This document shows positions 11,641-35,812 of a stretch of 64,000 nt of DNA, one piece after another (position 1 is the first letter of the stretch; the number at the start of each line of letters is the position of its first letter). Both the position numbers and the translations under genes were made by a program. This DNA comes from Spirochaetia bacterium (GTDB lineage Bacteria; Spirochaetota; Spirochaetia; UBA9216): contig CAXXYH010000004.1 of NCBI GenBank assembly GCA_963677925.2, positions 480,001 through 544,000 on the forward strand, given 5' to 3'. Below the pieces are notes generated by a model, which was not told the origin of the DNA, ran no database searches, and saw only the letters and a program-made list of their open reading frames with translations.

Positions 11641-12138
11641 TTATTTAATATTGACTTTATATTTTTTTGTATCACTATCAAGTAATAAAAATTGTTCTTC
11701 GATATTGTCTTCTATTAGCTTTATACCATTTGAAATTTCATTGATGCTAATTGGAAAGATGAATTCAAACTGGTTGTCCTTCAGCATGTACTGTTGTTTG
11801 CCATTGGTGGAGATAGTTCCCAGATATGAAAAACGGGAAGTATCGTAGATTGTGACTGCCTGCTGTGGTACGAGTTCTTTGGTTTCTGCTGGTTGTAAAT
11901 TGACTACCTTATAAAACATCTTCTCCAAATAACTTGTAGAGATCTCTTTTTTTGGGGATATCTCTGTTGTTTTGGGTTCAATTTTGGAAGATATTAATTG
12001 AGAGGTAGTGACATTTTCAGTTTTTGTTGAATTGATAAATACCTCTGATGGAAAGATAAACAGAAATACAAGATATACAGCCGCCAACACAATCGCAGCA
12101 ATTAGGATTGTTTTTATTATAATTGTAAACCTTTTCAT
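11641..12138 (-). CDS. Bitopic membrane protein, candidate GspC/PilP-like T2SS component
   Basis: N-terminal TM, low-complexity linker, beta-rich C-term FSYLGTISTNGKQQYMLKD; last gene of the gsp operon (4-bp overlap). Confidence 0.5.
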   Translation of the reverse strand: MKRFTIIIKTILIAAIVLAAVYLVFLFIFPSEVFINSTKTENVTTSQLISSKIEPKTTEISPKKEISTSYLEKMFYKVVNLQPAETKELVPQQAVTIYDTSRFSYLGTISTNGKQQYMLKDNQFEFIFPISINEISNGIKLIEDNIEEQFLLLDSDTKKYKVNIK

Positions 12139-13226
12139 TCAAGTTCCTCTTCATAACGGATATTGCTGATTATCTGTATGATTCTTTGGCCCGAATTGCT
12201 TTCAGAACTGCTGCCCCCTGGGCGGTATGAAAGCTTTATGTCGGGAATTTCTGCGATGATGATTTCGTGCCTCTGATTATTAGTTCTTATTGTTATCTTC
12301 CAGAACCAGGTTTTTGTTCCAAGATAATCGAAGATGATATGGGGTTCATCCTTAACTGAAAAAATGGATTCAAGCTCACTTGTGTCCATTTCGCTTCCGG
12401 TTCTTCGCTGGATAATCGTGTTATAGGTCCTGTCAGGATAGGGCAGGGGATTATCCCCGAAATCATAGGATAGTATTTCTTTAAGAAGTTCCTCCGGGAT
12501 GAAATGGATGTTCATGACAGATCCCGCACAAATGAATGGATATAGTTTCCTTGTCGATGTCCCGAGTATGCTTTCAATCTCGTTGTTCGGGATGACGGTA
12601 TCGTTAATCCTTGCCGTTTGTATTTTCCGTCTGAAGGATTCGGCTTCGAAGTCCCTGCCGGTTCTTGCCTCAAAAAGCCCGGTAAGCGCAAGCTCGTCTG
12701 CAATGTTGATGTTCATGTAGCTGTGGATTGTGATGAAGTCTTCAAGCCCTTTGTCGGAGAAGTATTCCTCCGACAGTATTTGCGGATTTGATATCAGACC
12801 GAGATCATGTCGTAACTGTTCAATCTCAGCCATCGTATGGCTGTCTTTAAAGATAAGTTTACCGATGCCGGTTTCATCCGTAAGCTCATCACGAAAGAAG
12901 TTTGGATTGAACCTGCTTGAAATATCGTTAAGCTCAATTGAAAGCTCTTCTGTAATTAGTGAGCCGACGGTTTCCCATACCGGATCTGTTGGTGAATCGG
13001 ACCCGGGGGTATCATCGTAAAGAAGGCTTTCAATAATATCTTCAGTGATGTCCCGGATGAGCTTCTCCGTTTCGGTATCGGGAAGCCGGGTGACACTCCT
13101 TTTCGAGGATGCAATGAGGTATGACAGTCCGATAAAAAGGATTGAAAGAAAGATTATCAGCATGAACGCGTATGGGGTGGCAAAGCCTTCCCGGAATGAA
13201 TCAGCAGGCCTTCTATTCATTATCAT
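12135..13226 (-). CDS. gspK: T2SS minor pseudopilin, GspK-like
   Basis: REG/FATPYAFMLIIFLSIL prepilin-like N-term lacking E5; IELNDISSRFNPN and MNINIAD motifs; about 360 aa. Confidence 0.7.
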   Translation of the reverse strand: MIMNRRPADSFREGFATPYAFMLIIFLSILFIGLSYLIASSKRSVTRLPDTETEKLIRDITEDIIESLLYDDTPGSDSPTDPVWETVGSLITEELSIELNDISSRFNPNFFRDELTDETGIGKLIFKDSHTMAEIEQLRHDLGLISNPQILSEEYFSDKGLEDFITIHSYMNINIADELALTGLFEARTGRDFEAESFRRKIQTARINDTVIPNNEIESILGTSTRKLYPFICAGSVMNIHFIPEELLKEILSYDFGDNPLPYPDRTYNTIIQRRTGSEMDTSELESIFSVKDEPHIIFDYLGTKTWFWKITIRTNNQRHEIIIAEIPDIKLSYRPGGSSSESNSGQRIIQIISNIRYEEELE

Positions 13227-13728
13227 CCCCGTACCGAAGGGAATGGCTTCCAAAAAGAAGCTTGTACTCGTATGCATTACCGTGGGCATCAAAGAAGACG
13301 ATATTTATCCCAGCAGTTATTTCATCGACCATGACCGGTTCAAACTGTCCGTTTTTCAGGTTTTTATAAACGATCTGCAGCTCATCATTTCTTTCAACGG
13401 ATAATCCATCTTCACCGAATGAAAGCCTTAGAAACGAATCCCTGTTACCGTTTAGATAAGGGAGTTCAAGCAGTTTATTACTGCTGCCTGATTCAGGGTA
13501 CTCTTCCCAGAAGGGGATCTGAATCTCATTGAATGAGTCTTTTAAAAGCATGCCCGCCTGCATGGATTCGCGCAGGAAGATCTGCTTCTCTCTGACAGCA
13601 TTGAAACTTGAAAAAAGCTTCTGGCCGCCTATGAACAGCAGGAGCGAACCAAGCGATAGAATAAACACTGCAATAACGGTTTCTGTAAGGGTAAAGCCTT
13701 CTTCAAGCCGGGAGTACTTATTCATCAT
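13213..13728 (-). CDS. T2SS minor pseudopilin (GspJ-like)
   Basis: EEG/FTLTETVIAVFILSL class III signal peptide. Confidence 0.75.
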   Translation of the reverse strand: MMNKYSRLEEGFTLTETVIAVFILSLGSLLLFIGGQKLFSSFNAVREKQIFLRESMQAGMLLKDSFNEIQIPFWEEYPESGSSNKLLELPYLNGNRDSFLRLSFGEDGLSVERNDELQIVYKNLKNGQFEPVMVDEITAGINIVFFDAHGNAYEYKLLFGSHSLRYGDDNE

Positions 13729-35328: not shown

Positions 35329-35347
35329 GATTTAGGTTGTTTATACT

Positions 35348-35812
35348 ATGAAATTAAACCGTAATATAGTTATAAGTATTATTATAATTGGAATGTTGAG
35401 TATTTTCGGAATTTTAGAATTGAGAGATTTTTTAATATTAAAGAATTTTAAAAATGTCTCTAATGATTTAGGTCGTTATATCACATCTTTTGATTTATGG
35501 TATGGGGAAAAAAGAACAAAAATAGAATCTACTGAAGACTTAGTTAAATTATTCAATAGGCTCATAAACGATGCAACAGAGAAAAAAATGTATCTACGTG
35601 GTGGGAATTATGATACGTATGTATTTAATATGTATTTGACGAATGGTGAGAAAATATATTTTCAAATTAAATTTGATTCTGATGAAAATGATATTTTTAT
35701 CGATGTTCAATACAAGAAAGTGTTAGTCTTCCAAAAATCAATTGTAAATAATCCAGAAAAGTTAGCTTGGTTAAAAGATGAATTAATTTTAACTTATACT
35801 CATTTGGATTAA
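35348..35812 (+). CDS. Candidate cognate immunity protein (N-terminal membrane anchor)
   Basis: Small AT-rich ORF 19 bp after the Rhs stop; N-term IVISIIIIGMLSIFGIL. Confidence 0.6.
   Translation: MKLNRNIVISIIIIGMLSIFGILELRDFLILKNFKNVSNDLGRYITSFDLWYGEKRTKIESTEDLVKLFNRLINDATEKKMYLRGGNYDTYVFNMYLTNGEKIYFQIKFDSDENDIFIDVQYKKVLVFQKSIVNNPEKLAWLKDELILTYTHLD

Follow-up and report, generated by a model that had tools for sequence, protein, structure and literature searches.

Organization of the locus

The window examined here is a stretch of 64,000 nucleotides from a Spirochaetia bacterium (GenBank assembly GCA_963677925.2, contig CAXXYH010000004.1, positions 480,001 to 544,000 of the forward strand), and it carries a cluster of type II secretion system (T2SS)-like genes next to an operon encoding a giant Rhs protein (Table 1). 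The listing of open reading frames (ORFs) and family scans placed the T2SS-like genes in a minus-strand operon of 12 tightly spaced or overlapping genes running from position 21760 to 11641. The gspO end of this operon at 21760 stands back-to-back with the start of a plus-strand operon at 21863, with 102 bp between them, and the second operon encodes a partner protein of 1140 amino acids (aa), the 3345-aa Rhs protein and a 154-aa immunity-like protein. At the ends of the two operons, scans for promoters and terminators gave no signal over the shuffled background. A reading made earlier from the letters and ORFs of the window (the sequence-only reading) had described the divergent arrangement and its gap, an Ig/PKD/beta-helix gene and an Rhs gene followed by a small gene, signal peptides on both large proteins, and an Rhs protein free of PAAR or Tc-type domains. 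All of these features were recovered: the gene order from the ORF coordinates together with Pfam and NCBIfam domains, the architecture of the partner from Pfam and an AlphaFold2 model, and the signal peptides by eye and with a hydrophobicity script, as throughout this study. A Pfam search of the Rhs protein at an E value of 0.01 found no PAAR, SpvB or TcdB domain.

Table 1. Coordinates of the module and of the island that contains it (positions in the window)
Feature	Positions	Strand	Basis
tRNA-Leu(CAG), integration site	782-868	+	ARAGORN
attL, 60-bp repeat equal to the 3' part of the tRNA	807-866	+	Repeat alignment
Tyrosine integrase	1020-2159	+	Phage_integrase, E 1.3e-24
Final operon gene, GspC/N-like by position only	11641-12138	-	N-terminal membrane helix and periplasmic part
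Large minor pseudopilin, GspK-like	12135-13292	-	Prepilin-type N terminus without Glu5; membrane helix
Minor pseudopilin, GspJ-like	13213-13782	-	N_methyl, E 5.7e-4 (below cut-off); G/FTLTE motif
Small minor pseudopilin, GspI-like	13718-13963	-	Weak ComGE/ComGF matches; prepilin-like N terminus
Lipoprotein with CarboxypepD_reg and TPR domains	13911-14480	-	Pfam, E 1.1e-11
GspM-like bitopic protein	14477-15046	-	Topology only (helix 19-37); without family match
GspL-like bitopic protein	15000-15968	-	Topology only (helix 174-192); homologues in related clusters
Major pseudopilin GspG	15968-16408	-	T2SSG, E 6.2e-35
Inner-membrane platform protein GspF	16424-17476	-	T2SSF, E 8e-40
Secretion ATPase GspE	17473-18942	-	T2SSE, E 3e-126
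Outer-membrane secretin GspD, 723 aa	18945-21116	-	Secretin, E 1.8e-31; Secretin_N, E 2.2e-11
Short prepilin peptidase (gspO), operon gene 1	21332-21760	-	Peptidase_A24, E 7.5e-12
Partner protein, 1140 aa	21863-25285	+	Signal peptide; Ig-like (Big_13), PKD and PKD_4 domains (Pfam)
Giant Rhs protein, 3345 aa	25291-35328	+	Pfam, NCBIfam, motif, core alignment, tip swap
Immunity-like gene, 154 aa	35348-35812	+	N-terminal membrane helix; swapped together with the tip; no family match
attR, right 60-bp repeat, island end	36270-36329	+	Exact match to 807-866

The best NCBIfam models for GspD, GspE and GspF were those of T2SSs and not PilQ, PilB or PilC. GspD scored 113 bits to type_II_gspD (cut-off, 351 bits), with only its C-terminal part matched, GspE scored 497 bits to type_II_gspE (cut-off, 630 bits), ahead of PilB, and GspF scored 184 bits to the GspF model (cut-off, 424 bits), ahead of PilC. 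Since these three proteins scored best to T2SS models but below the equivalog cut-offs, the cluster is referred to as divergent and T2SS-like. GspG passed the NCBIfam equivalog TIGR01710 with 125 bits against a cut-off of 88.85. Pfam matches of GspD to the N0 and STN domains were weak and under their cut-offs, and the prepilin peptidase was found by Pfam and a topology script to consist of 142 aa, with the A24 domain alone and five hydrophobic segments. The labels L-, M-, I-, J-, K- and C-like are based only on gene order, predicted topology and prepilin-like N termini. PDB sequence searches with the GspL-like and GspK-like genes returned zero matches, and no GspH-like gene was recognized in the operon. 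The GspK-like gene is conserved in related clusters, in which homologues of the GspC/N-like gene, itself without a family match, are also present. The lipoprotein recurs at most of the related loci, the secretin-only ones described below among them; as an accessory gene it is the hallmark of this T2SS clade, and it is a candidate pilotin.

The Rhs protein begins with a signal peptide, followed by a discoidin domain (F5_F8_type_C, aa 39 to 154), Glucodextran_B and Big_13 domains, RHS repeats and a core. It matched RHS_repeat (E value of 1.3e-72), YD_repeat_2x (E value of 7.9e-49) and Rhs_assc_core (E value of 4e-23, aa 3076 to 3150), and alignment with metagenome Rhs proteins put the conserved core at about aa 1232 to 3150. 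The cleavage motif DPTGL is intact at aa 3146 to 3150 (DNA 34726-34740), and the 195 aa that follow it (aa 3151 to 3345; DNA 34741-35325) form a variable C-terminal tip. No N-terminal domain that defines a delivery route was found in the protein, whether PAAR or VgrG for a type VI secretion system (T6SS) or SpvB or TcdB for the toxin complex (Tc). Neither the tip nor the immunity-like gene had a Pfam match at E values of up to 1, and in the ESM Atlas the tip fell only into unnamed clusters, with scores of ≤0.90 and low recognition. The proteins encoded downstream of both Rhs tips of this genome have N-terminal hydrophobic leaders, consistent with a protective role at the membrane or within the periplasm.

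In the partner, alignments marked the C-terminal beta-helix domain (about aa 961 to 1140; DNA 24743-25282) as the conserved part. The AlphaFold2 model of this protein, with a predicted local distance difference test score (pLDDT) of 74, showed a PKD domain and then a short right-handed beta-solenoid. A Foldseek search of the model against the PDB gave a PKD match only (best E value of 3e-3) and weak beta-solenoid rows, with no functional lead.

Two modules in one genome

The genome that contains the window (G000) is 99.6% complete and held exactly two secretin and two RHS-core matches, which were adjacent pair by pair, so that the pairing of secretin and Rhs is far above chance. The second pair, on the contig designated C1, belongs to a full paralogue of the module with the same divergent layout. 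Amino acid identity between the window copy and the C1 copy was 86% for GspD, 84% for GspE, 78% for GspF, 94% for GspG, 28 to 65% for the accessory genes and 42% for the partner; for the Rhs protein it was 64%, up to about aa 3189 only. In a GspE tree, each G000 paralogue grouped with its orthologue from the sister species G002, indicating that the duplication predates the split of G000 and G002.

A search of the whole genome gave no match to the T6SS sheath (VipB/TssC) and none to PAAR. With neither of these in the genome and no PAAR, SpvB or TcdB domain in the Rhs protein, the usual routes of Rhs delivery were not found. A search for VRP1 (TcA) also returned zero matches, but its controls were equally silent, and so it says nothing about the Tc route.

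Exchange of the tip and the immunity-like gene between sister species

G002 has orthologues of both modules, the one on its contig C7 corresponding to the window copy and the one on its contig C6 to the C1 copy. The window and G002:C7 were 97.8% identical in DNA over positions 21000 to 34741, that is, up to the first base after the DPTGL codons. From 34742 to 35840, the segment with the tip and the 154-aa gene, there was zero similarity, and from 35841 to the repeat the identity was 93%. The C1 copy and G002:C6 exhibited the same pattern of break and replacement. Four unrelated pairs of tip and downstream gene were found at these four orthologous or paralogous loci, with the break exactly after DPTGL, and one of the swapped G002 tips had a weak match to CHAP, a peptidoglycan-hydrolase family (E value of 0.0023). 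The swap of a tip together with an immunity-like gene supports polymorphic-toxin behavior, and the proposal in the sequence-only reading of a polymorphic toxin with a variable tip is strengthened by it.

The approximately 460 bp at 35813-36269 have no called gene and are 93% identical to G002 despite the swapped cassette upstream; this segment may be a downstream recombination anchor. G002:C6 (L005, 7196-9069) has two extra minus-strand genes between the partner and gspO, one encoding 380 aa with an SH3_3 domain and the other 242 aa, and G000 is without them.

Recurrence of the T2SS-Rhs link in other spirochetes

Within the order of the window genome, 4 of 11 genomes have this secretin, and in a sample of the phylum it was found in 36 of 401 genomes at an E value of ≤1e-30. 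The sequence flanking each of the 40 secretin places found outside the genus was retrieved, to about 20 kb at most per side, and the ORFs of the flanks were searched with the window proteins, with an iterated Rhs-shell profile and, for the largest ORFs, with Pfam. Places with at least 9.8 kb beyond both cluster ends (23 of the 40) were taken as fully assessable; for 15 of the 40, the contig stops too soon to allow a judgment, in several cases immediately past the cluster. At 13 of the 23 assessable loci, an Rhs-family ORF of 1956 to 3422 aa was present on the same strand, with its start 116 to 4035 bp beyond the far end of the cluster, and the upstream flank had an Rhs-family ORF at none of the 23. 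Two partial loci, G120 and G235:C12, have an Rhs gene just upstream of gspO/gspD, again on the same strand. The Rhs-positive places represent seven genus codes and three family codes beyond the window's own.

In the GspE tree, Rhs-linked loci were located in several deep clades, and well-supported branches forced at least six changes. The link is retained in three gene orders: that of the window's own genus, that of G120 and the metagenome locus L123, and the downstream type. The genetic coupling of the T2SS-like cluster with a signal-peptide Rhs protein, a partner and an immunity-like gene, as put forward in the sequence-only reading, appears well supported, since the module is duplicated in the genome, conserved in G002 and recurrent elsewhere. 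The survey of gene neighborhoods that the same reading had suggested as a check came out in favor of the link, both in these flanks and in the partner-Rhs pairs from metagenomes described below, but not of a universal one, as is weighed with the alternatives.

In G003 and G007, which are the closest T2SS relatives beyond the genus, the contig stops next to gspD, and neither locus was counted as assessable. G003 has Rhs fragments on other contigs; a search of G007 (81% complete) gave none, and neither genome yielded the partner. All four genomes of genus g6 (98 to 99% complete) encode an Rhs protein of 3227 to 3322 aa, with a secretin of 405 aa and the lipoprotein some 750 bp upstream of it, and no GspE-family match over the Pfam cut-off was found anywhere in them. 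These secretin-only loci may be either a decaying remnant or a sign that the secretin and the lipoprotein are what matters most for Rhs.

Several further arrangements were observed at these loci. Directly after the cluster in G205:C1 (L061/L062) and G270:C1 (L056) is a giant SpvB/FG-GAP/TcdB_midN/RHS fusion of the TcB-TcC type. The fusion measures 3422 aa in G205; in G270, 2410 aa of it are present before the contig stops. An integrase homologue is also encoded in G205, about 5 kb away from gspO. In G339:C1, G225:C1, G294:C1 and G205:C1, the main Rhs gene is followed by shorter Rhs C-terminal fragments that alternate with small leader-bearing genes, in arrays that look like orphan toxin-immunity cassettes. 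In G104:C1 (L053, 7015-10179), an alpha-1,3-glucanase of 1055 aa with discoidin, CARDB and CBM6/35 domains is encoded.

Partner proteins in related loci

The 1140-aa form of the partner is confined to the window's genus. Its family is small, with about 20 beta-helix clusters among 55 matches in the protein collection, the others being PKD-only, and the one named cluster is a "right-handed parallel beta-helix repeat-containing protein" from a Spirochaetaceae metagenome-assembled genome. A scan of metagenomes with the alignment of the partner beta-helix found nine loci, at six of which a beta-helix-ended protein is encoded directly upstream of the Rhs gene, often overlapping it. These upstream proteins are 280 to 310 aa long, with a leader, at five loci and about 1000 aa long in L118. 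The Rhs proteins beside them carry leaders, are 1930 to 2199 aa long where complete or nearly so, and align to residues 1232 to 3151 of the window Rhs protein. In both the partner and the Rhs protein of the window, long N-terminal Ig- and lectin-like extensions have been added to a compact ancestral pair. At L123, the partner, Rhs, immunity-like gene, gspO and gspD are all on one strand, and the other partner-Rhs contigs stop inside or just past the Rhs gene. The beta-helix profile gave a single weak match at treponeme-type loci, at a contig end in G058; these loci have other conserved genes directly upstream of Rhs and share the lipoprotein with CarboxypepD_reg and TPR domains.

The tRNA-Leu island

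The whole module of the window lies inside a 35.5-kb island with a tRNA-Leu, an integrase and exact 60-bp direct repeats. A third att copy splitting the island in two was sought, and none was found. The site is empty in G008 and G010, of the same family, in which the tRNA and the post-attR sequence are 10 bp apart, the 69 bases past the window attR standing within 10 bp of the tRNA. In G005, other inserts with copies of the repeat are present at the same tRNA. In G002, the T2SS-Rhs part occupies the same tRNA, with a DNA identity of about 97% starting at window position 11446, but the left arm is different. It spans about 10.8 kb (L117, 2731-13502, G002:C7), is without a tyrosine integrase, and encodes an OLD-family nuclease (AAA_15 and TOPRIM), a GNAT-PIN protein, two rve transposases of insertion sequence (IS) elements, an ABC-2 transporter pair and a MerR/GyrI-like regulator. 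The module thus lies within an inserted segment whose tRNA-proximal arm turns over.

The integrase, the tRNA-Leu repeats and the empty sites in G008 and G010 support mobility of the module. The sequence-only reading had the whole system travel as one mobile unit, and this is supported for the window copy but does not extend to the C1 copy. No island marks were found at the C1 copy, the two loci retrieved around it showed no tRNA, and the only second match of the integrase query in the genome is on a contig other than C1.

The left arm in the window includes three overlapping plus-strand genes (7693-11340), of which the one at 9415-11340 (641 aa) matched the Lamassu protein LmuB (PADLOC, E value of 2.2e-53); the two ORFs upstream of it (410 and 177 aa) had no matches. 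This segment is likely a Lamassu-type defense system. Further copies of the tRNA-Leu 3' repeat are present downstream in relatives (G005:C11, 56018-83333; G002:C7, 603502-603566), so that the tRNA appears to be a hotspot at which islands accumulate in tandem. The GC content was 43 to 47% in the T2SS genes, 33 to 37% in the partner-Rhs operon and 30 to 33% in the left arm of the island, with an average of 43% for the contig that contains the window; the GC contrast was smaller in the C1 copy of the module.

Comparison with known systems

Work on Rhs toxins has dealt nearly exclusively with cargo of the T6SS or Tc. The PAAR-Rhs proteins of T6SSs and the TcB/TcC cocoons share a YD shell, self-cleavage of the core at DPxGL and an encapsulated variable C-terminal toxin, a plan that the window Rhs protein would also follow, and the T6SS forms have a downstream immunity gene, as the window putatively does. 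The window Rhs protein differs from the T6SS and Tc forms in having no PAAR, VgrG, SpvB or TcdB_midN domain and in carrying a signal peptide and lectin and Ig domains instead, although some relatives (G205 and G270) do carry SpvB, FG-GAP and TcdB_midN beside a T2SS. The Bacillus subtilis protein WapA is a polymorphic toxin with YD repeats and a signal peptide, accompanied by its cognate immunity gene; unlike the window system, it belongs to a Gram-positive host, with no outer membrane and no secretin. To our knowledge, little has been established about the way in which signal-peptide Rhs proteins cross the outer membrane of Gram-negative bacteria.

Bcn-A of Xanthomonas perforans is an Rhs/WapA-like bacteriocin whose activity in supernatants is lost in an xpsD mutant, and WapA is cited in the paper that describes it (PMC7259588). 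In the literature searched, and as far as the available text of that paper goes, Bcn-A is the only case with genetic evidence for outer-membrane crossing of a signal-peptide Rhs protein. Like the window system, it involves a YD-repeat protein, an immunity protein predicted to be in the inner membrane and accessory ORFs, which Bcn-A needs to be active. It differs from the window system in that it is a protein of 1398 aa from a proteobacterium and uses the general Xps T2SS, with no secretion cluster of its own, and the accessible text describes neither a beta-helix partner of the window's family nor a tRNA island (PMC7259588). Rhs families of Xanthomonas and Ralstonia have been linked to gspG, with T2SS export unconfirmed according to the authors; as in the window, their neighborhood points to a T2SS instead of a T6SS (bioRxiv 10.1101/2025.05.08.652813). 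The main text, as available, reports the gspG link only and no operon from gspO-D-E-F-G to C, and the supplement may show more (bioRxiv 10.1101/2025.05.08.652813). The sequence-only reading had been aware of no characterized example of a self-contained, T2SS-delivered Rhs system. Bcn-A, through its dependence on xpsD, and the gspG-linked families came before, and that view is corrected: T2SS-linked Rhs toxins have precedent, and the system is not categorically new.

By comparative genomics, Zhang et al. assigned many signal-peptide RHS toxins to "T2SS" export in 2012, with spirochetes among the phyla listed (PMC3482391). In the portions of the article at hand, the word "secretin" is absent and no dedicated apparatus linked to a toxin, such as that of the window, is described (PMC3482391). 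Giant genes of Omnitrophota are preceded by a conserved T2SS-like locus containing gspD, gspE and gspF, and resemble the window in that very large secreted or adhesive proteins are encoded beside such a locus; unlike the window Rhs protein, they are non-Rhs proteins of another phylum with many transmembrane regions and, in the text available, no tip-immunity cassette (bioRxiv 10.1101/2023.11.21.568195). Treponema denticola has long paired YD-repeat genes (3,320 and 1,126 aa), for which no secretion link is noted in the available part of the report, and this pair resembles the secretin-only loci of g6 in gene lengths (PMC3747143). No complete T2SS operon co-inherited with an Rhs protein, a partner and an immunity cassette was found in the literature searched, and none in spirochetes.

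Proposed function and alternatives

We propose that the locus encodes an Rhs polymorphic-toxin system of modular build, coupled genetically to a T2SS-like apparatus of its own for export across the outer membrane, and we give this reading a probability of roughly 0.55. The core T2SS parts are all in one overlapping 12-gene operon, which speaks for it. From the sequences, we infer the export route, the role of the partner and the activity and target of the toxin as follows. Sec signal peptides would bring the partner and the Rhs protein to the periplasm, where the Rhs core (about aa 1232 to 3150) would form a YD shell, cut itself at DPTGL and retain a C-terminal toxin of about 195 aa. The apparatus, comprising the secretin, the lipoprotein, GspE and GspF, the pseudopilins and the A24 peptidase, would then move the Rhs protein over the outer membrane to the surface or the medium, and the beta-helix partner would probably be exported along with it. 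The N-terminal discoidin, Ig and PKD domains may bind the target, to which the variable C-terminal tail would be delivered, and the membrane-anchored downstream protein would shield the producer and its kin.

Several observations weigh against this proposal. Ten of the 23 assessable clusters are without an Rhs gene within about 10 kb, and one of them, in G104, adjoins the alpha-1,3-glucanase gene, so the apparatus is not intrinsically Rhs-specific, and this T2SS clade also accompanies ordinary glycanase-type cargo. Rhs shells were present in 162 of the 401 phylum genomes, in a survey that scored two candidates per genome, compared with 36 of 401 for this secretin type, a search in which remoter secretins would be missed at an E value of 1e-30; most Rhs genes of the phylum are thus not tied to this secretin. 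A search for homologues of the tip among proteins of 343 to 2000 aa found none, and its AlphaFold2 model from a single sequence, with a pLDDT of 37, was unusable, so that toxicity of the tip and immunity conferred by the downstream gene are suggested by the cassette swap alone. Going by the usual dimensions of canonical secretin channels, a shell of about 1900 aa with a 1200-aa N-terminal extension may exceed them.

The Rhs-less clusters and the glucanase neighbor would suit linkage without function, in which variable or island regions would have collected the T2SS-like cluster and the Rhs operon as independent cargo, the T2SS secreting other substrates such as glycanases or building a pilus-like fiber and the Rhs protein leaving the cell through vesicles, lysis or another outer-membrane factor. 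The variable left arm of the island (LmuB in G000; OLD nuclease and IS elements in G002) and the GC contrast between the T2SS genes and the Rhs operon point the same way. We nevertheless regard this explanation as unlikely, as separate cargo would account poorly for the same position and strand at 13 of 23 loci against none on the other flank, counts that, with related genomes being non-independent, give a pattern rather than a statistical test and overstate the number of separate events. It is likewise at odds with the persistence of the link through three gene orders, the two-out-of-two pairing within the genome, and the retention of a secretin beside Rhs in a genus that gave no GspE match.

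Two other explanations accept the coupling. The T2SS might export the Rhs protein and the partner as surface adhesins or as factors directed at a host or another eukaryote, the downstream gene then encoding a chaperone or a self-protection factor rather than a classical immunity protein. The discoidin, Ig, PKD and glucodextranase-B-like binding domains of the two proteins are what such factors could carry, TcB/TcC-type fusions stand beside the T2SS in G205 and G270, and the window tip matched no known antibacterial toxin family. This role seems improbable to us in view of the joint exchange of tip and downstream gene, as a single cassette, between the sister species, in the manner of interbacterial polymorphic toxins, the weak CHAP match of one swapped tip, the export or membrane leaders of the downstream proteins, and the orphan arrays of Rhs tips and small genes in G339, G225, G294 and G205. 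Alternatively, the shell could stay in the periplasm and dock under the secretin with the beta-helix partner as an adaptor, only the unfolded, cleaved tip being threaded through, much as a TcB/TcC cocoon docks on the TcA channel. The whole shell would then not need to pass the channel, and the intact DPTGL motif and the retention of secretin and lipoprotein by Rhs where there is no GspE match are both consistent with such a conduit. However, the lectin- and Ig-like N-terminal domains (about 1200 aa of the Rhs protein and about 880 aa of the partner) lack an obvious periplasmic use and the full set of ATPase and pseudopilus genes is kept at most loci, and we consider this version very improbable.

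Beyond the proposal of an export-coupled polymorphic toxin, these loci may represent a distinct secretin-centered route of Rhs delivery, in which a T2SS-derived apparatus, the lipoprotein and lineage-specific partners would be co-evolving with giant signal-peptide Rhs shells. We offer this more general idea tentatively, as less likely than not. The link would be old, as it survives three gene orders, and strong, as one genus keeps the secretin and the lipoprotein only. If the idea is true, a secretin-centered route would be a new class beside T6SS, Tc and Sec/WapA delivery, and how a shell of 200 to 370 kDa, or its cargo, passes a secretin would become a question. The secretin-only loci, in genomes that gave no GspE match, suggest that part of the route may dispense with the pseudopilus motor. 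The locus also shows that a tRNA island can house a whole secretion system with its cargo, and that the two can be duplicated together. The window offers a compact and clearly bounded system of apparatus, partner, toxin and immunity gene, present in two copies, and its recurrence in other spirochetes makes the question testable.

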